Source: Schmidtea polychroa
Lineage: Eukaryota
Assembly (NCBI GenBank): GCA_044892525.1
Contig: CM097885.1
Coordinates: forward strand, 20,214,001 to 20,278,000
Direction: 5' to 3'
Length of the DNA: 64,000 bases
Below, one piece after another: positions 2,615 to 16,074 of the stretch (positions are counted from its first letter, which is position 1; each line of letters opens with the position of its first letter). Made by a program: the position numbers and the translations under genes. The notes under the pieces are model-generated. The model saw only the letters and a list, made by a program, of their open reading frames with translations. It made no database searches and was not told the DNA's origin.

Positions 2615-2986
2615 TTATTGATCGGCGTAGCGGAATCCTTTGATTCGCTGCGCAATCCTCTGTCTGCACATCGGACATTCCTTTACTTTTCTACTACATG
2701 TGGCACATGCGATCAAATGTCCGCATGGCATATGAATAACTTCTACACTCCTCTCCCAACACATAGTACATTTGATATCTCGTAAGATAGCTGTTTTGAC
2801 CATTGATTCTTCTTTTATTTTTGTTTCAGGTTTTTCTCTATACTGGGTTATCGCTCTGATCATATCGTACGTTGTTGTTGGTATATGTACATTTTTCTGT
2901 AGTTTCTCTCTAATCATGTTCTTTGCCCTTGTCGTGCCTATTCCGGCTGCTTTCAACGCTCTGCACATGTTGGGTTTGTCTACCAC
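2615..2986 (-). CDS. C3HC4 RING protein of IAP/MUL1/MDM type; frame stays open upstream to about 3082, overlapping the polyprotein end
   Basis: CTMCWERSVEVIHMPCGHLIACATCSRKVKECPMCRQRI matches the C-terminal RING pattern of IAP-like E3s. The track start is GTG. Confidence 0.85.
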   Translation of the reverse strand: MVDKPNMCRALKAAGIGTTRAKNMIREKLQKNVHIPTTTYDMIRAITQYREKPETKIKEESMVKTAILRDIKCTMCWERSVEVIHMPCGHLIACATCSRKVKECPMCRQRIAQRIKGFRYADQ

Positions 2987-2990
2987 TTCG

Positions 2991-5900
2991 TCAACCTCTT
3001 GTTCGTCGATCCATAGCTGTTCCGGTATCTTTCCGTTTTGGCGGATTGTAAGTTGTATCTTTTGACGTGGTCGCTCCTGGATCTACTCTCCAGTTGCTCC
3101 ATTCATCGGTTGTGGTTACATCTTTATTGGCACCTCTTTCCACGTTATCTAAATCCGTCTCGGCTTCCGTCGTTTCCACTGGTTGTCTCTGCGCGCATAC
3201 AAATCCATCTAAATCATCAGTTGTCGGTTCACCTTCGTCGATAAATAGATCTCCTGATTGCGATGCTCTCATAATCTCGCCTGCTTCTACTATCTCTTGT
3301 AATTCATCCAGTATTTCGTCTTCTCCCGTTGTTTCGATCGTCACTTCACTAACCGCATTTGGAACTTCTGGTGTGTCCAAACTTCCTGGTTGTTGGGTGG
3401 ATGATTTTTGCTTTATCTCTCTTCTCCTTAGCTCTCTACCTGCAATTTTACTCACCGTTAATCTGTTCACAATTTCTCCTTGGAGTGGTGTCACACCGAT
3501 CTCAATATCGTCGTCTAATGATCGTCCCTCGTGTTGTAAGTGGAATGGGAGTTCATAAGGTATTCTCTTTTTAACTTCTCTGACTTTAGCTGTCGTATAG
3601 AATTCCTTTTCCATTGGTTCAAAATCTGGCATGAATATTTTTAATTGATATTTCTCAGGTGAGTTTTCGGCCCACTCTTGTTGTTTCCATTTCCGGATAA
3701 TTTCACCAAATTGTTCAGGGTACCATACGTACACCCGTCGATATTCTTCAATCGCTTTAACGATTTTTCGTAGGTTTTGAATCCTTTTGCATGATTCGGC
3801 TATCCATTTTGCTAGTTCTACCACCGCTCGTCGACGATTTTTCGCCCCGTTTTGTAATATCTCCATCAACTCCTTACATTTTTGTGCTTCCAACAATGTT
3901 GCTGCTTCTTCCTCATCTGCGTCGGCGTCTATTGGTAGATGTCCTGAATCAGACACTCTTCTCCTCATCATACAGATTCTCGGTTGATTTTCTGGTATGT
4001 TCAGTCGTTGGTTCATTTCTTGTTCTGTTTCAACTTCTACTCTGATCTGGATAGCATTGTTTTTCACAAATTTTGACTGCTCATTCTCAATGTAACTTAG
4101 ACGTATTAATTTAGGTGTCCCAGAAGCGATATTTTCTGATGTTGTTGGTCGTTGATAGCAGGCGCTCCTTGGATCTGGTTTCAATGTTTCTTTATGCCTG
4201 TTAAGGCTATCTTTCAATGGTTCGATTGCTATCGTCACTTTTCTGCTAAACGGCCATGGTACCTTGTCGTCATAATTTCCTTTGCAGATGACGAAGAATG
4301 CCGACACATAACTTCCTTTACCTATCCCGTCTCCGTTCGGGTATATTCGCAATTTCATCTTGTACTCACCTAATCCTGAGTAGAACGGTGGACTTACTAA
4401 TCGTGTGATTTTCTCTTCCTTTGCTGATTTTATCTTTTCCATCCAATTCTCAATTTTCCACGTGAATGGTGCTAACCTTACTGGTTCTCGTATCTCCTCA
4501 TCTTCTCCTGATGGTAATTCATTTTGGAATTCTTGTGGTAATATATCCTGGTAAGTATCGATCGGTTTCTCTCTTACCCATACTGCTGCGATCTCTTCGG
4601 GTATATTATCTATCCAATTTGGTTCCAACTTTTGCTGCTCCCAATCCCATCGAGCTTCACTTTCGATCCACACTTTTTTCCATGGTATCAGTTTGCAATC
4701 TTCGTCATTGAAGGCTGCTAGTTTTAGTTTATCATCCTTTAGCCAATGGTTATAAATATCTATTATTCGATCCATCTTTGCTCTCATTCCCCATTGGAAT
4801 CTTTTAACTTGTTGCTCGGTTTTCGTGGCGTTTTTGTGCCCACCAGATGGTTCATCCATCGCGATTATATTGATGACGGCTCCATCTTCCCAGATTCCTA
4901 GTTCGTAAATTACAGTTCGGTCTCCTCTTTCTAGCATGTGCCGGTTGTACATTATTATCACATCTTCGATCATTCCATCCTCACTATTTTCTCGAGCTTT
5001 TTGGATGATCTCTTGATCTATGATTTGCACTAACTCGTCAACTTGGCAATCGGGATTAACTTCTATTATTTGTTTCTCTTCATTTGGCAACTTCACCTTT
5101 ATTTTTATCGTTTCATGCTCGCATTTGGTTCTCTCGTATTCTCCGTATTTAGATATCAATTCTGTCGCTCGTTTGTCTTCGAATCTCATAATTTCCGTGT
5201 CTCGTACGTCTTTAACAAATTGTTTCATTAGTTGTGGCCATCTTTCTCTCAATCTATTAATGTATTTCCTTGTCTGATCGATAGCTTGTTTGACTAAGAT
5301 TATTTGGTTTTCTTTCATTATTTTTCGTTCGATCTTTTCCAATTCTGGTTCCACTTCATTGTTAAACACTTGTTGGATTTTCTTGAACATTTCTGCTACC
5401 GAGTCGTCATCTCTGGTTTTCTCTAAGGTTAAGATGTTAGTTTCGTTTGGCCATATCATCGCATCTACCAAATGTATGCCCATTTTAACTTTGTAACCAT
5501 CGACATATAATTGTTTATTTTTATGGCTCGTTCCCATTTTTTCCTGTACCCAGTTGTACAGTTCATCGGTATTTGTTCCTTTTAATTCAATAGTCTGTAT
5601 CTGAATCTCGGGGTGTTGAATACTTACTTGATATTGATCTGGGCCTGCTTCCTTTAGTTTCTCTTTATATTTTGTTGCTAAATCTTTCCATGCTGCCGTT
5701 ATTATACCTCCTTCGCACTGGTATACTTGAGTTATAAGTTTTAAGCATTTTCTGTATGTTAACTCGTTGATGTAGCTCTCATTTCGCTCTATTTCTGTTA
5801 CTGTGTCGAGAATTTCCTCGAATATCTCTTCTTCATCTTTTTCTATCATTGATTTCATGTCATCATTTTCACTCTCCTCACTACTTTGAGGTGTTTCACT

Positions 5901-7925
5901 GTTTGGAGGTGTTTTCGGTTCGTTATTTTCCTCACTTGACTGAAATAATTCGCCTCCCAGGCTACTCACCTCACTTTTCTCATCTTCCTGATCCGTCTGA
6001 TCGCTCCGCATTTGTCTCAGCATGTTTATTTTAGCTTTAGTATGTGGTTCCTTCTTTTCAAACCACTCATTTTTCCTGAACCAATGCTCTTTCACTTTTT
6101 CTTTTATTTGTTCCTCAGTTAATGTAGGATTTTCGTTTTTGATTCTGTCTTCGATTTTTTGTAGTAGTACCCTCTGAATTCGATTTTTTGTAATTATCTC
6201 ATTGCTTTTTGGTTCGTCTTTACTCTCATCTCTCTTTTGTCTCCTTTCTTTCTCCTCTTTGGTAAATTCTTTAATCAATTGTATTTTCTCTTCACTGCTC
6301 AATTCTGTTCGTGGATCAATCTCATCTTCTTTTGTCGTTTTTATCTCCTTGTTTATTATCGGTTCACTCCCGTCGTTGTTAACACACTGCTCCGCAGTGT
6401 GCGATTCCTCTTTATTTGTTAATCTCATCATATTTATTCTTCCGGGATTCGCTTCCCGTTGTTTCCATCTTTCTTGAATTTCTCTGGCTTCCTCGTTTTG
6501 TAATCTTTGCCATTCGACTCGTTGCTGATCTTGTTGTTGCTTACTTGGTTGGTTCCGGATTTCCTCGGTGCTCTGCATCATGTTGATTCGTTGTTGTTGG
6601 TTATTAGTCGGTATTCGCAGGATCATATCTCTTAATTGTTCGATTTCCTGCATGAGGTTGATTTGTGTGTTCTGAACTGGATTGTTTGATCCTGGTTGAT
6701 TTGGTTTGGTTCTCATCGTGCATTCTCTTGCCATGTGTCCAGGCTGATTACAATTGTAGCAGGTTCTGGTTCCTCCTCTGCTCATAGACATCATGGGTCC
6801 TCTGCAGACATTTTCCGTGTGGCCTCTTCTCCCACACTTTTGACACATCCTTGCTTTATAACATTCATTGCTCCAATGCCCTGGTCGTTGGCATATGTTG
6901 CACGTTCGATTGTTGATGTCGTTGTTCCTGAAATTATTAGTAAAATTTTGAATATTACCTCCATTGTTTTGGTTTCTTGTTTGTGGAGTTTTGAACAACT
7001 GTTGCGATCCTGGGATGAATTGATTCATTACTGGATTTGCATTATTGACTTGGTTGTTTGTGGTTGTTGCTGTTGTTGCTGGAGCTGCTGGGGCTGCTGT
7101 CATTGCTGCTACTTGTATTGGTGTTAGGTAAGTTTCACATTTGTTAGCTATTTTTAGTGCTTCTTCCAGCGTCTCTGGTGCTCGGCATCCCAAAGTTGCT
7201 CGTATATCCTCCCGTTTCATGCCATCTACGAATACGGCTATTATTTTGTCTTCCGGAACTGGTTGATTTGAATCGAAGGCTTCTCGTGCTAGTCGTCTCA
7301 ATTCGCATGCGTACAGTGCGTTGGATTCGTTATATTTCTGCTTTCGATGCAGAAAGTCTAACATTTTTCGATTTCCCTCTTTTTCGGTACCGAATGTTTT
7401 TATTAAAAACTCCTTGATCTCTTTCCACGTTCTCAACTTAGTTGCATCACATTTCGCCTCCAAGTATACATCTTGGGCGCTTCCCTTTAGATATAGGGGT
7501 ATTCGTTCTCGTACGACTATGTCTGGCCAGTGACATATCGTAATGTATACTTCGAATTCCTTTATAAACGTTTCCAGCTGGTTTATATTTCCATCGAATG
7601 GCTCTCCTCGAAATTTCTCTCTGAATTCTCCAATGTTGACGTGCACATTACTTGTTTCCGGTGGGTCCGTTAGCCCTGTTACATTTGGAATTCCGTCTGT
7701 CATTATTTCTTGACACAAAATTGTTATATTGGTTGACTCTGAACTATTTCCTTCCTCGTCTGATGATTCAATGTCACTTATCGGATCTAGTTCGGTTCGT
7801 TTAAGATCGTCGCTGTTCTCAAATTCGTTTGTTAAACTATCTGATTCAAATACTGTTTCTACTGATGCTGGCTTCCTGTGTAGTTTTCTGTTGGTCTTGG
7901 CCTTTTGTATCTCTTCCTTTTCCAA
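2991..7925 (-). CDS. gag: Gag polyprotein fused to host-like domains: capsid - 3x CCHC - Ubl - Ubl - TRAF MATH - Ubl
   Basis: Capsid ~7125-7620 (PFDG...LYLKGSAQ...RKQKYNES...PETLEEA). Three CX2CX4HX4C knuckles 6720-6902. Ubl-like segments ~5418-5636, ~4839-5111 (ends SGG) and ~3446-3653. MATH ~4029-4469 (FTWKI..SPPFYS..YPNGDG.GKGSYVS..WPF). Track start is TTG; first ATG is 7703. Confidence 0.9.
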   Translation of the reverse strand: MEKEEIQKAKTNRKLHRKPASVETVFESDSLTNEFENSDDLKRTELDPISDIESSDEEGNSSESTNITILCQEIMTDGIPNVTGLTDPPETSNVHVNIGEFREKFRGEPFDGNINQLETFIKEFEVYITICHWPDIVVRERIPLYLKGSAQDVYLEAKCDATKLRTWKEIKEFLIKTFGTEKEGNRKMLDFLHRKQKYNESNALYACELRRLAREAFDSNQPVPEDKIIAVFVDGMKREDIRATLGCRAPETLEEALKIANKCETYLTPIQVAAMTAAPAAPATTATTTNNQVNNANPVMNQFIPGSQQLFKTPQTRNQNNGGNIQNFTNNFRNNDINNRTCNICQRPGHWSNECYKARMCQKCGRRGHTENVCRGPMMSMSRGGTRTCYNCNQPGHMARECTMRTKPNQPGSNNPVQNTQINLMQEIEQLRDMILRIPTNNQQQRINMMQSTEEIRNQPSKQQQDQQRVEWQRLQNEEAREIQERWKQREANPGRINMMRLTNKEESHTAEQCVNNDGSEPIINKEIKTTKEDEIDPRTELSSEEKIQLIKEFTKEEKERRQKRDESKDEPKSNEIITKNRIQRVLLQKIEDRIKNENPTLTEEQIKEKVKEHWFRKNEWFEKKEPHTKAKINMLRQMRSDQTDQEDEKSEVSSLGGELFQSSEENNEPKTPPNSETPQSSEESENDDMKSMIEKDEEEIFEEILDTVTEIERNESYINELTYRKCLKLITQVYQCEGGIITAAWKDLATKYKEKLKEAGPDQYQVSIQHPEIQIQTIELKGTNTDELYNWVQEKMGTSHKNKQLYVDGYKVKMGIHLVDAMIWPNETNILTLEKTRDDDSVAEMFKKIQQVFNNEVEPELEKIERKIMKENQIILVKQAIDQTRKYINRLRERWPQLMKQFVKDVRDTEIMRFEDKRATELISKYGEYERTKCEHETIKIKVKLPNEEKQIIEVNPDCQVDELVQIIDQEIIQKARENSEDGMIEDVIIMYNRHMLERGDRTVIYELGIWEDGAVINIIAMDEPSGGHKNATKTEQQVKRFQWGMRAKMDRIIDIYNHWLKDDKLKLAAFNDEDCKLIPWKKVWIESEARWDWEQQKLEPNWIDNIPEEIAAVWVREKPIDTYQDILPQEFQNELPSGEDEEIREPVRLAPFTWKIENWMEKIKSAKEEKITRLVSPPFYSGLGEYKMKLRIYPNGDGIGKGSYVSAFFVICKGNYDDKVPWPFSRKVTIAIEPLKDSLNRHKETLKPDPRSACYQRPTTSENIASGTPKLIRLSYIENEQSKFVKNNAIQIRVEVETEQEMNQRLNIPENQPRICMMRRRVSDSGHLPIDADADEEEAATLLEAQKCKELMEILQNGAKNRRRAVVELAKWIAESCKRIQNLRKIVKAIEEYRRVYVWYPEQFGEIIRKWKQQEWAENSPEKYQLKIFMPDFEPMEKEFYTTAKVREVKKRIPYELPFHLQHEGRSLDDDIEIGVTPLQGEIVNRLTVSKIAGRELRRREIKQKSSTQQPGSLDTPEVPNAVSEVTIETTGEDEILDELQEIVEAGEIMRASQSGDLFIDEGEPTTDDLDGFVCAQRQPVETTEAETDLDNVERGANKDVTTTDEWSNWRVDPGATTSKDTTYNPPKRKDTGTAMDRRTRG

Positions 7926-10511: not shown

Positions 10512-10994
10512 TTATGGGAGGTATATTACAATTTTCTCTCTAACATTCGTATCGCATACGTTGCATCGTTTAATTTTCTCTGCGCAATTCTCGCAGTAGC
10601 ATAAATGACCACATGGAATCGTCATTACTCGTATTTCATTGGTTCTGCATATGAAGCATTTTCTAAAATCTTTAACTTGATGTTCGATTGCTTCTTTAAT
10701 TTCTTCCTCGATCGTTTCCATTTTTATCATTATCTCCTGCCATTTGATGTTAAATTTGGCATTGTCTAATCGTAAATTTTGAAGTTGATAAACTCTTTTA
10801 GTGGTCAATTCTGCATTAGGTGTCGCTATTTTCATCATTACGCATATTTCCTCAGCTTGCGGTCTTGGATTCAAGCTCATCTCATCTTGGATTTTTATCA
10901 ACTGGTCCGCTTTGCGATTTAGCCGTTGTAACGAATTGTGTGTTAAATCTACGAATTTTTCGAGTCTCTTTGTAATGTAGCCGGTTGATTCCAT
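10512..10994 (-). CDS. 160-aa coiled-coil plus IAP-type RING protein
   Basis: CFICRTNEIRVMTIPCGHLCYCENCAEKIKRCNVC...IYLP C-terminus; TTAATTAG directly before ATG; AATAAA at 10493-10498. Confidence 0.88.
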   Translation of the reverse strand: MESTGYITKRLEKFVDLTHNSLQRLNRKADQLIKIQDEMSLNPRPQAEEICVMMKIATPNAELTTKRVYQLQNLRLDNAKFNIKWQEIMIKMETIEEEIKEAIEHQVKDFRKCFICRTNEIRVMTIPCGHLCYCENCAEKIKRCNVCDTNVREKIVIYLP

Positions 10995-11508: not shown

Positions 11509-11789
11509 TCATTCTATTACTAAGTTATTCGTACAGCATTCTCATACCCACTTTCAATACATTCATATGTCGTCATACTTTAAAACTTCCATCACTCATT
11601 TAGACATTCTACATACATTTTATCATATTCGCATATCCATATACTAAGTTTAAGCGCTTGGGAAAACAACCTGCTCGGTCTTGAATGCATATCACTTTAT
11701 ATCCGCTTTTACTCTCTCTATTATATCTATTCTCGGGTTCTTTCACCAATTAAATTTTCAATATCCCGGCTGAGCCCCCAAATTTGTAT

Positions 11790-12010
11790 GGTGGGTTACT
11801 GGTGGTTGAATGATTGAGTGCTGTTACCAGCGTAACCCAAAATACAACATTGTTTTTCCGCTTGGTACCCGTTGAGTGATCAACGTTGGTACTGTACCAA
11901 GGGTTGAGTACTCGCAAAAAGTGAGCGCATCAAAGCACTATAGTTGTCGAGTACTCCGTGGGTTCACGGACTACCGATAGAAGGTGTGTGTCCGATTTCT
12001 CAGGTCCCTT
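11790..12010. ncRNA. Conserved structured cis-element, copy 1
   Basis: Inverted homologue at 23398-23630 with compensatory changes in at least three stems. Confidence 0.6.
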
Positions 12011-12186
12011 TATCAAAATTGTTTTCCCAACCTTATGCACAAACTCTCATTTCCCAGGCAATCATAAACTGTACTAGTCCTTATTTTATCACTACAAAAC
12101 GTGCAGTATTTTAACAAGGAACATATTATTTGAAGACTACCACAATACATAAAAATACTACAAAACACCTAAAACCGAATATAAGT

Positions 12187-12699
12187 TCAAACAGGCTTAT
12201 TGGTAGGACTGGCCAATTCCGTCGCAGCTGCTAGTGACGAATTTGCTTGTCGCTCGTATTCGGCCAGTCTAGCTTTCTTCAATTTTTCCCGAATATTTCG
12301 GCCTAACCGCTTTCTTTTGGGTTTCTCTTTCGCGGCCGGGGGGTATATTGCTGCTAGTTCCACGGTCAACGGCCGGATTTGGCTTATGGCGGCTCCGTGA
12401 ACTACTTGTTCATTTCGCTCGGTTTCTAGCGCGCGGAGCTGGAGCTTCAGTGCCCGGATCTCCATCTGATCCTGCGCGGCTTGAGTCTGCAGTTGAAGGA
12501 CCTGCGCCACCTTCTTTTTCATATCCTCGGGACTAAACCAGGTGCTTTCTAGTTCCCGGCACCGTCCCTTGAGCTTGTCTACTCGTATGCGGAGCTCCTC
12601 GGACTGTTTTTGAGCTTCTGCCCTATCTCTTCGCAGATTTTCCAATAGTTTGAACACTAGATAAATTCAACGATTATATTCTTGCAGCGTACTATTCAT
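12187..12699 (-). CDS. Coiled-coil protein with basic NLS-like patch (KPKRKR); one in-frame TGA near the likely start
   Basis: The 156-aa track ORF starts at GTG. The same frame reads ATG(12699) NSTLQEYNR*IYLVFKLL..., so either a point nonsense change or a 36-nt GT..AG intron removes the stop. Confidence 0.65.
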
Positions 12700-12866
12700 T
12701 CAATTATAAAATAAAATCAATATTATAAATAGACATGGTTTCGGGTGTTAAGCACGCAATACACAAGATGATTTATTAAAAGGACTGAAATAATTATCAC
12801 TAAAATCAAAGTTTAATAAAGTCACAACTGGATGATAATTTGCAAAAACAAAATTTTGACGATGAG

Positions 12867-13232
12867 TCAGTTCAGTCGCTTGCGAGGCCTTCCCCTCTTC
12901 CGCGGGGTTGCCTCGGCCTCTTCTAGGTCCTCCACGGTTTTTCCCTCTTTTTCTGCTTGGATTTGCAGCTCGATCTTCTTGAGTCGCATCTGAGCTGCCT
13001 CTACCTCGATGGCCGCTCGGTCGCGGGCCTCTTGCAAAAAATCGTTTGTGGGCTCTGTTTTTACCCACGCCGGAGCGTCCGGCTCCGGCCCACTCCTGAT
13101 TACTGGGCCAAAGTTGTCGAGGTCCAAACCCCGATTCCAATCATGGATACGGTGCCATATGTACCGTGTACGGAGTCTGGTAAGCAGCTGTCGGTCGGCT
13201 TCTTCGTGGCTATCGCTGTCAGAGTAGGACAT
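12867..13232 (-). CDS. 121-aa protein with C-terminal AT-hook
   Basis: Ends TPRKRGRPRKRLN (RGRP core); has a VKTE SUMO-consensus site and a short coiled coil; TTTTGTAG 2 nt before ATG. Confidence 0.75.
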   Translation of the reverse strand: MSYSDSDSHEEADRQLLTRLRTRYIWHRIHDWNRGLDLDNFGPVIRSGPEPDAPAWVKTEPTNDFLQEARDRAAIEVEAAQMRLKKIELQIQAEKEGKTVEDLEEAEATPRKRGRPRKRLN

Positions 13233-13617
13233 TTCTACAAAATAATAATCAAGCCCCTCTATACTGATTGAGATACGACGTCAACCACAAGATTTTGTTG
13301 ACCCTTTTTCCCTTTAAAAAAAAAATATTTTATTTTAAGACTAACATCTATAAGCTTAGGAGTAGTGGAATAAGATTTCCTACTTTATCAAAACAAACAC
13401 AAAAAAAAAAAGAATTTCGTCAAAATTCGTTTGTTTAAATTAATCATTTCCATTCAAAATTTTGTTTACCACCGAGTGGTAATCTTAATTACTATTTATA
13501 AATTTTAATTTATATGTTAATAAAATGTGAATTTTTTTTTTAGATCGTCATTTTTAGGCCACTAAATTCGGGCACGCTGGGGCGACAGGTACTAGCAACG
13601 AACTAAGCTCTTCGTCT

Positions 13618-13628
13618 GCTTACCTTTC
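13618..13628 (-). promoter_or_regulatory. Candidate major splice donor GAAAG|GTAAGC
   Basis: Consensus 5' splice site in a GC-rich island (13555-13670) upstream of all minus-strand ORFs. Confidence 0.45.
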
Positions 13629-13747
13629 CTTCGGTTGTGCTCGTTATGAGTGGTTTGCTCTGCATACAAGTAATTTATTTAATTTGCTAATTTCTAAATT
13701 TCCAGGTGATCGATATCGGATTGGGATATCGATTTTTTGTAGTTAAC

Positions 13748-14100
13748 TGTAATAATACCAATAATAATAACAATGAAATAACGATACTAATAATAATAAT
13801 AATAATGATAATAATAATATTAATAATAGCAATGATAGTAATAATAATAAGAATAATAATAAATTTTAATAATGGTAATAATAATAATACTAATAATAAT
13901 AATAACAAGAATAATAATAAATTTTTATAATGGTACTGATAATGATGATAAATATAATAATGCTAATTATGATATTCATAATAATGATAACAATAATATA
14001 ATAATAATAAGAATAAGAATAATAATACTAATAGTAATGATAATGTTGATACTGCTAATAGTAATAACAAGGGAAATGATCAGGATTATGATAACTATAA
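13748..14100. repeat. Degenerate (AAT)n microsatellite
   Basis: Read directly. Confidence 0.9.
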
Positions 14101-14849
14101 TTTTACAATCCCATGTTTTAGAATTATAAATTTATGTTTTATAATTTATACTTTGATAATTTTCGATTTATAATTTAAAATTTTTCAATTTAGGGATTTA
14201 CAATCTTGTAATTTATAATTATAATTTCATATTTTGAAATTTATACATTCATATTTTATAAGTTATAATTGCTTAACTTATAATTTCTAAGTTTATAATC
14301 TGAAATTTATACTTTTGTAATTCGTATTTTCGTACTTTATAATTTGAAATTTTTAGTCGACGGAATATACTTCTTACAACTTCCTTTCTATGATCAACAT
14401 TGTTTTCCGCAGTACTTACAGATTTCCTGGTCCTATTTGTGGATTAAACTTCAGGGTTCTAGCGCGTCTATCGCCTATTACTATCTCTGATCAGACTTTC
14501 TCCATTAACACTTTACATTTTCAGGATCGACGTGATTTGTACCTAGCTATCGTAATTATTTATAACTTATAGTTTTATGGTTAACAACAAGAATATTACA
14601 ACTAAGAGCCTACACATTTACAAACCTTTTAAAGTGGGAACTAGATTTAAAATGTCTATCTTTACTCGGAATCAGCATATCTAGGCCAAGTTATACCTGT
14701 ACGTATGCCGAATATCTCTCTTATTTCTATTACTTTATCAAAGATCCTTACTACAAAATCTAGTTCGGCATATGTCTAAGCATAATTGAAATTACCATTA
14801 TGAATCAACTAGCTACATTAATGTGAGTGTAGAATTGTGTAATTTTAGG

Positions 14850-16074
14850 TACGAGCTCTACTCAAATTAGAACCTTAGTGTAGAGTTATTGTTCAGGATT
14901 TTAAGTGTTGAGTTTAATTGTATATTACGCAATGAGTCGGGAAGAATATTGCTTCCATGGCCCCACTGTGACCACGTCCACAAACCTTAGTGTTGTGTGC
15001 TAAGTCAACCATTTACGGCTGACCTTAAATAAATACGAAGAGTCAGGCGGAGGGTTTCCTCGACCTAACTCCATGGCAGGACCATGAAGTAGTTCGACCT
15101 CCGGCTGACCCGAACAAAAAGAAATCATATAATAAATATCACTATAATAATGATAATGCGTGTCTGCATGTCCTGTTAATAACGATTTTAATAAATTGGA
15201 TGCAGGACTGAACAACGACGCAGGAATACCAGTACGCCGTTGATCACTCATACATCGCAAAAAAAAAATTTAAGCAAAAATAAATTTAAAATACCATCTA
15301 TATAATTAAACAATTAATATACAAATAAAGATCAATGCTTACTATCGATTTTGGAAATTTCGTCACAAAAATTTGGCATAAAAGTGATTGATTGTGACTG
15401 AAACGTGTCAGTATATATACCTATTTAGTACACGTGTATGTATTGATGCATTAAAACAAACTCGAATTCTTTTTATTCCAGAATTTTCTATTTTACGATT
15501 TTGCTATTTTTAATGGCAATTTTTTGTGCCATAATTTTTGTTTTTATTTTTATATTTTTATTTTTTAATTATTTTTCATTAATTTTACGTCCATGATGGA
15601 TTTGGAACGGTTCCAGAACATTCTATTTTACTTTTAATTTAATTTTTATTTTAACTGATGTTTTTATGAATTCTTTTTGAGATTTTTTTATTTTTAATAC
15701 TAATTCATTTATTTTCCTTAACTTTTGTTGTTCTAGATGACTTTTGTGATGGTCATCGCCATTTTATAGAATGTTCTGGGTTTTTCTGGAATTTTTTACT
15801 ATTTTTATCGTCTTTTCAGTTATTCGAGTTTGCTTTTGGTAATTCTATGTTTGTTTGATTATTTTTGAGTTAGGTTTTTGCATCACTTCTTGCTTCTGTA
15901 TAATTTTATTTAATTTCTTTGTTTATGTTTTTGTTGCTTTCTCCTTTAGTTAATATTGTTTATTTGGTGTGTATTTTAATATTTAACTATACTTTTTGCT
16001 TTTTACATGTTGTGTACCTGCACGTTTCAGTCACAATTAGTAGTTTGGGTCTAGAAATCAGTTCTAGCCCAACA
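14850..16074 (-). repeat. Terminal repeat copy A (LTR end or long TIR)
   Basis: Outer ~750 bp closely matches 25080-26273; inner 14935-15120 closely matches the reverse complement of 19030-19215. Confidence 0.85.

Follow-up and report, generated by a model that had tools for sequence, protein, structure and literature searches.

Recurrent hexamers in the Gag-cargo polyprotein of a Burro-like giant retrotransposon of Schmidtea polychroa as candidate sites of the element's own protease

The analyzed stretch of the Schmidtea polychroa genome, hereafter the window, comprises 64,000 nucleotides (contig CM097885.1, positions 20,214,001 to 20,278,000) and harbors on its minus strand one copy of a long terminal repeat (LTR) retrotransposon, the features of which are collected in Table 1. 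The copy measures 21.8 kb from LTR to LTR. Its main gene is a single open frame that runs from a Met codon at 7703 to a stop codon at 2991-2993 and encodes Gag together with captured domains. Comparison with a full copy of the same family revealed that a 12.4-kb deletion took out the BCL2-like, fusion-protein, protease (PR), reverse transcriptase (RT), RNase H (RH), integrase (IN), ankyrin, TRAF and BIR parts, and no pol gene (PR, RT, IN) was found between the two LTRs. Among the 40 scored matches of 574 candidates, the deletion junction is spanned by the window copy only. The window copy derives by deletion from a giant Ty3/gypsy element of Burro-like type and no longer encodes a protease.

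Table 1. Features of the window copy, with the hexamer sites of its polyprotein. Positions are those of the window unless a genome coordinate is given.
Feature	Position	Strand	Basis and remarks
Truncated Gag-cargo polyprotein	2994..7703	-	1,570 aa counted from first Met; terminates at deletion junction
Capsid region of Gag, limits approximate	7128..7640	-	Retrotrans_gag (E 6e-6) in aligned 71% sister protein; dN/dS 0.05
Nucleocapsid (NC), three CCHC zinc knuckles	6717..6902	-	Sequence; Pfam zf-CCHC
Ubiquitin-like domain 1, likely	5400..5660	-	Atlas 0.88, ubiquitin-family clusters; lead only
Ubiquitin-like domain 2, likely	4839..5126	-	Atlas 0.77; Pfam OTU1_UBXL E 0.096; lead only
TRAF-type MATH domain	4032..4466	-	Pfam MATH_2 E 1e-29
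12.4-kb internal deletion junction, 6-bp microhomology	2995..3000	-	Comparison with full copy
5' LTR, 4,286 bp	11789..16074	-	Identical to 3' LTR; TG...CA ends; 4-bp target duplication
3' LTR	G000:C1:20208277-20212562 (left of window)		Same 4,286-bp sequence as 5' LTR
Primer-binding-site-like 18-mer	11763..11780	-	8 nt inside 5' LTR
Site 1, QINLMQ	6648..6665	-	After NC; QINV[MI]Q, QINIMQ, QINLMQ in relatives
Site 2, RINMMQ	6573..6590	-	RINVM or RINMT in relatives; deleted in protease-less family
Site 3, RINMMR	6423..6440	-	Unchanged in 7 of the 8 copies fetched from the protease-less family; the eighth has RINIMR
Site 4, KINMLR	6015..6032	-	Precedes Ubl-Ubl-MATH block; HINMLR in P0084, NINMLR in protease-less family
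Site 5, RICMMR	3963..3980	-	After MATH; RISVLE at aligned place in P0084
Site 6, looser, QVAAMT	7098..7115	-	Capsid/nucleocapsid border; QVAV[LM] in relatives

The primer-binding-site-like 18-mer presumably resembles tRNA-Pro, and its spacing from the LTR end (window 11763-11788) is wider than usual. Further frames were observed on the minus strand, including a 160-aa RING protein upstream of gag (window 10512-10994), the RING half that the deletion left over from the BIR-RING frame, at the junction (2615-3082), two frames that are coiled-coil-rich in appearance (934-2535 and 3-794), and overlapping frames of 130-159 codons within the LTR (12187-13280). One of the LTR frames ends in an RGRP repeat, which we take to resemble an AT-hook.

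The undeleted form of the element is represented by a full copy at G000:C1:224596458-224610830, which is 99% identical to the window copy over their common part and contains a frame of 4,791 codons. This copy measures 34.3 kb from LTR to LTR, with an internal region of 25.7 kb. Frames of at least 4,700 codons hold 83 of the 121 scored family matches, drawn from 5,666 genome candidates. The full frame encodes, in this order, Gag, MATH, a region with a weak BCL2-like match, a Monjiviricetes-type fusion glycoprotein, PR, RT, RNase H, integrase, ankyrin and, at the C-end, a second predicted membrane protein; TRAF and BIR-RING accessory frames come next. Pfam identified MATH_2 and Ank_2 within the full frame, BIR plus RING in the accessory frame, and Monjiviricetes_fusion (E 5e-69) in frame between the BCL2-like region and PR. 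The protease retains an intact DTG motif at residue 2720 and matches Pfam RVP and gag-asp_proteas. The match list of the BCL2-like region consists almost entirely of Bcl-xL chains, but with E values of 0.4-1.1, and a third ubiquitin-like (Ubl) candidate, between MATH and the BCL2-like region, had no ubiquitin match in a PDB sequence search. The interval between PR and RT contains a conserved stretch that is present in all relatives; Pfam yielded no dUTPase match there.

Around the fusion protein (residues ~1890-2497 of the full frame), a signal-like segment precedes it and a membrane segment follows it, and a second signal-like segment, an ectodomain and a membrane segment lie at the C-end (~4298-4701). 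The full-frame polyprotein appears to cross the membrane several times, and the C-end ectodomain with its membrane segment could be an attachment protein. Three hydrophobic segments of the full frame suggest membrane proteins that would be handled by the host signal peptidase.

PMC6431247, citing Jurka 2007 and Grohme et al. 2018, describes Burro1 (GYPSM1) of Schmidtea mediterranea as a giant LTR retrotransposon of the Ty3/gypsy type. We infer that the family described here is Burro/GYPSM1 of planarians, matched by the description in PMC6431247 and not by deposited sequence. According to that description, Burro1 is longer than 30 kb with its LTRs and has an internal region of up to ~25 kb, with which the full copies here (34 kb and 25.7 kb) agree. 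It likewise has one giant frame, quoted at 4,873 aa as compared to the 4,791 codons found here, that extends from a Gag with three CCHC knuckles through PR-RT-RH-IN, and it carries MATH/TRAF, ankyrin and BIR domains as well as an in-frame fusion protein between the BCL2-like region and PR. The description further places a Ubl between MATH and the BCL2-like domain and a dUTPase-like domain between PR and RT. The window copy differs from Burro1 in being without pol.

The earlier note on this DNA had listed five repeats of a hexamer, [RKQ]-I-[NC]-[ML]-[ML]-[QR], as a candidate protease cleavage code. All five are present at the coordinates given there, on the minus strand in one open frame (Table 1, sites 1-5), and the pattern has no other match in the six frames of the whole 64-kb window. 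Shuffled frames gave an expectation of 0.002 matches, with at least two matches in 0 of 20,000 shuffles, a significance that is overstated because the pattern was derived from its own matches. Three tests are independent of the pattern choice, namely the profile search of Pol junctions, the count of replacements within the family, and the held-out set of distant elements. The sites do lie in polar linkers, as proposed, with a 15-aa hydropathy of -0.35 to -2.7. Site 1 follows the last zinc knuckle and site 5 follows the Pfam end of MATH, by 18 aa each. The Ubl domains are leads only; a PDB sequence search with both Ubl segments of the window returned 0 matches, and a single-sequence fold that covered sites 1-5 and further residues was set aside because its mean pLDDT was 35. 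The statement that codons differ between the repeats is largely correct. Codons for the same non-Met residue are unlike in 13 of 23 pairwise comparisons between sites, and the 45-nt flanks agree at 7-21 positions, compared to 14.5 ± 3.2 for random in-frame pairs; nevertheless, sites 1 and 2 share 15 of 18 nucleotides, as do sites 3 and 4. The looser site 6 had been absent from the earlier list.

Conservation within the family was assessed in 21 fetched copies and the reference (92-99% identity), picked for long frames or greater divergence, at eight sites, comprising the five window hexamers and the capsid/nucleocapsid (CA/NC), pre-PR and post-PR sites. Replacements common to at least two copies were found at 0 of 48 codons of the eight sites, compared to 26 of 274 in the linkers (P 0.02). 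When only the five window sites are counted (0 of 30 codons vs. the same 26 of 274), the difference is not significant (P 0.09). Silent variants common to copies occur at 8 of 38 informative motif codons and at 257 of 1,479 overall, which is a normal rate. As judged from these substitution counts, the hexamer peptides are under purifying selection while their silent rate is normal. Contigs from 4 of 18 sequencing runs yielded one joint, which lies outside any motif.

Relatives at 45-65% identity retain QVAV[LM], QINV[MI]Q and RIN(V/M), and P0069 has RICMLK after PR. In P0084, which is 49% identical, HINMLR occupies site 4 behind an unconserved linker; the RISVLE at site 5 shares 2 of 6 residues with RICMMR, and the changes at this site are all conservative. 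Sites 2-3 are readable in few of the relatives P0063-P0081 because breaks after RIN look like gene-prediction artefacts; these relatives were not found in the present genome, where their best match has 64% identity. P0194, a database protein composed of rearranged pieces from the Gag region, has KISMLQ in place of site 4. Thus, the motif is retained among copies and relatives while the linkers change, in line with the conservation against flanking linkers for which the earlier note had proposed to look.

We trained a profile on the five window sites alone and ran it across the 3,386 positions that follow residue 1400 in the 4,791-codon frame. The first rank was QICTMR, directly after PR (per-window P 0.011), the second was RIFMLR, after IN (P 0.09), and the seventh was RICLII, at the RNase H/integrase border (P 0.20). 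TIAVLQ, upstream of PR, ranked 38th (P 0.37), and the pre-RT junction of the full copy has no clear site (best rank 84, P 0.87). The expected recurrence of the motif at Pol junctions is therefore seen at the C-end of PR, at the RNase H/integrase border and at the C-end of IN, but is weak before PR and before RT. The third rank, RICVMD, sits within a predicted ectodomain, so the hexamer pattern yields false positives. The fourth, QTEMMQ, lies after the BCL2-like region, is without Ile, and is kept in 19 of 21 copies. Taken alone, this per-window test is suggestive and not decisive. Cutting after the third residue gives a 124-aa protease with its catalytic Asp at residue 26. This position is close to that in retroviral proteases, such as Asp25 in HIV.

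A second family in the same genome, 71% identical in Gag, encodes a single frame of ~1,572 codons (for example L107:1086-5801, which is G000:C1:43938586-43943301 on the plus strand; also L111, L113 and L115-L119). This sister family has 4.9-kb LTRs and is abundant and non-autonomous, with ~55 of the 150 listed matches, as counted by eye, lying in frames of this length. The frame joins Gag-NC-linker-Ubl1 to a C-terminal part with acidic, signal, ectodomain and membrane portions, and one copy, followed from its first LTR to its second, encodes none of PR, RT, IN, fusion protein and MATH. Of the hexamers, the family retains the one at CA/NC and sites 1, 3 and 4; it has lost site 2 and the region of site 5. 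Motif residues are kept at 16 of 18 positions, compared to 171 of 260 in the linkers (one-sided P 0.03); measured against 12-residue flanks, the P value is 0.06. The dN/dS ratios of 0.05 in the capsid and 0.22 in the linkers correspond to purifying selection.

More distant elements were approached by a homologue search; among the 61 proteins that it yielded, a dozen are polyproteins with a fusion protein, at 33-43% identity. A six-position profile applied to 19 distant elements showed no junction enrichment except after IN, and motif learning with one junction left out at a time failed (Fisher P 0.69), while 1 of 10 shifted controls reached 0.002. A strict four-residue class pattern built on the element's own letters, with letter classes partly taken from homologous junctions, matched 12 of 72 junction windows in 14 distant elements, a set from which four close partners had been dropped, where 2.5-3.1 matches were expected. 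A wider class pattern, fixed after those proteins had been seen, matched 33 of 72 windows, with 9-10 expected. In a held-out set of 24 proteins fetched afterwards, which provided 16 windows with usable landmarks, the unchanged strict pattern matched 5 windows vs. 0.4-1.1 expected (P ~0.001); the matches include RINMLC and QVFMMK, both after integrase. The P values for distant elements are optimistic because these elements share ancestry.

The genome also contains a second fusion-protein family (L075-L077, G000:C4) with a 3,334-codon frame, 43% identical in Pol and without MATH. The wider core pattern occurs in 1 of its 6 junction windows, and its junction motifs are much looser. In several distant elements with a fusion protein (P0002, P0003, P0005, P0006, P0008-P0011 and P0016), a second D[TS]G protease-like domain was observed right after integrase, and a like hexamer precedes that domain.

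Taken together, we estimate at roughly 0.8 the probability that the five hexamers are recognized by the retroviral-type aspartic protease that the element itself encodes, acting in trans on the window copy. Since the window copy has lost pol, a protease for it must act in trans, as the earlier note had allowed; full-length sister copies have an intact DTG protease in the same frame as Gag and would be its source. In the predicted register, P3 is polar or basic, P2 is Ile or Val, P1 is small (Asn, Cys or Ala) and the cut falls after the third residue, with Met or Leu at P1' and P2' and Gln or Arg at P3'. By analogy to the Ty1 report (PMC6952103), a homodimeric protease would read a nearly symmetrical site in which P2 and P2' are hydrophobic whereas P3 and P3' are polar. 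The predicted products of the window copy are a capsid of 199 aa (from the first Met), a nucleocapsid of 150 aa, two peptides (25 and 50 aa), a helical piece of 136 aa, a Ubl-Ubl-MATH protein of 684 aa and a truncated tail. In the full copies, the post-MATH piece would span the BCL2-like domain and continue as far as the fusion protein's signal sequence. In the protease-less sister family, the enzyme would likewise be supplied in trans. The freed MATH and BCL2-like proteins might act on host TRAF and apoptosis pathways or within the particle; that a freed MATH protein interferes with host TRAF signalling is a guess from domain type.

The earlier note had taken an HIV site as its model, and Ty1 proved closer. 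The Ty1 protease sites given in PMC6952103 are TARAH/NVSTS, VPTIN/NVHTS and IHLIA/AVKAV (slash, cut), and they resemble the hexamers in having hydrophobic P2/P2' and polar P3/P3' (TIN/NVH, RAH/NVS); in two of them, P1 is also small or polar. Ty1, however, belongs to the copia elements, and its three sites share no hexamer, whereas the element here has ~10 predicted sites, a near-fixed core, and Met or Leu at P1'. Retroviral Gag-Pro-Pol, as outlined in PMC3185560, shares with this element a polyprotein-encoded aspartic protease that cuts linkers between domains, which is here a prediction. According to the same source, retroviral proteases do not allow a consensus to be stated, and HIV-1 type 2 sites have a hydrophobic P1. 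In contrast, Asn and Cys predominate at the P1 predicted here, and sites are also present at captured host-like domains. The strictness of the hexamer is unusual because retroviral proteases generally lack a consensus (PMC3185560).

Since the element has been described before and textbooks would lead one to expect processing by its protease, what is added here is a map of predicted sites and a proposed route of cargo release, not a system of a new kind. Section 7 of PMC6431247, on Burro, describes no cleavage sites. Our literature searches turned up no account of where Burro proteins are cleaved; processing may be reported by Lee et al. 2026 on Burro1 (10.1016/j.devcel.2026.03.001), Grohme et al. 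2018 or Jurka 2007. The site map, its strictness, the extension to captured domains, and the retention in a protease-less sister family were not found in print.

The alternative that survives best, which we nonetheless regard as improbable, is that only the classical borders (CA/NC, post-NC, and around PR, RT and IN) are cut, and that the copies flanking captured domains are leftover or weak, in which case Ubl-Ubl-MATH would remain fused or be partly released. The success of a sister family that lacks site 2 and the site 5 region is consistent with it, as is the low identity of site 5 to the RISVLE of P0084 (2 of 6 residues), and foamy virus Gag, according to PMC3185560, is hardly processed. 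However, sites 3 and 4 are the best-kept linker residues in the 71% family, and site 4 is likewise so in the 49% relative. Moreover, the changes at site 5 are all conservative, and none of the five sites has a common replacement among the 22 copies.

TRAF-type MATH domains bind short linear peptides, and the element has such domains. The hexamer could on this account be a repeated binding motif (MATH/TRAF docking, or a beta-strand for particle assembly) or a host-protease site, and it is indeed stricter than the usual retroviral protease sites. We consider this very unlikely, since like hexamers bracket PR at self-excision distance and flank integrase on both sides, and also occur at the same borders in unrelated elements without MATH; furthermore, the protease-less family has sites 1, 3 and 4 yet no MATH.

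An RNA-level signal, in which ATGs in start-like context would serve as internal translation starts for the downstream domains, has still less to commend it. Each of the five sites does contain one or two ATGs. In addition, the main family and the sister family (L107, L111 and L118) have 0 silent differences in 15-16 informative motif codons, where ~4.6 were expected (window 6015-6665 and 7098-7115; P ~0.003, noticed after the fact). This absence of silent differences is likely chance, because silent variants at motif codons accumulate at the normal rate within the family. Homologous sites without any Met (QINVIQ, RISVLE, RICLII, TIAVLQ) and the conserved Ile upstream of the ATG also argue against internal starts. 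That the hexamers are functionless relics of short duplications, or chance, is the least probable explanation, for although 15 of 18 nucleotides are common to sites 1/2 and to sites 3/4 and the pattern was defined from its own matches, the flanks are no more alike in DNA than random pairs, the peptide is under selection within the family and in the sister family, and junctions are enriched in the held-out proteins.

Returning to cleavage by the element's own protease, we tentatively extend this reading, at somewhat less than even odds, to a Burro protease of strict consensus whose sites flank the captured domains and would free Ubl-MATH and BCL2-like regulators of immunity and apoptosis. In this extended reading, the protease-less sister family, which keeps the same sites and has its own Gag and second membrane protein under purifying selection, would be a satellite processed in trans.

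With the predicted sites, a frame of some 4,800 residues can be read as a set of mature proteins whose predicted ends are open to testing, in an element that reportedly aids planarian stem cells. The sites assign to a retrotransposon protease an unusually readable predicted consensus. They also suggest a way in which an LTR element may carry host domains in frame with its particle unspoiled, which would be to flank them with its own protease site.
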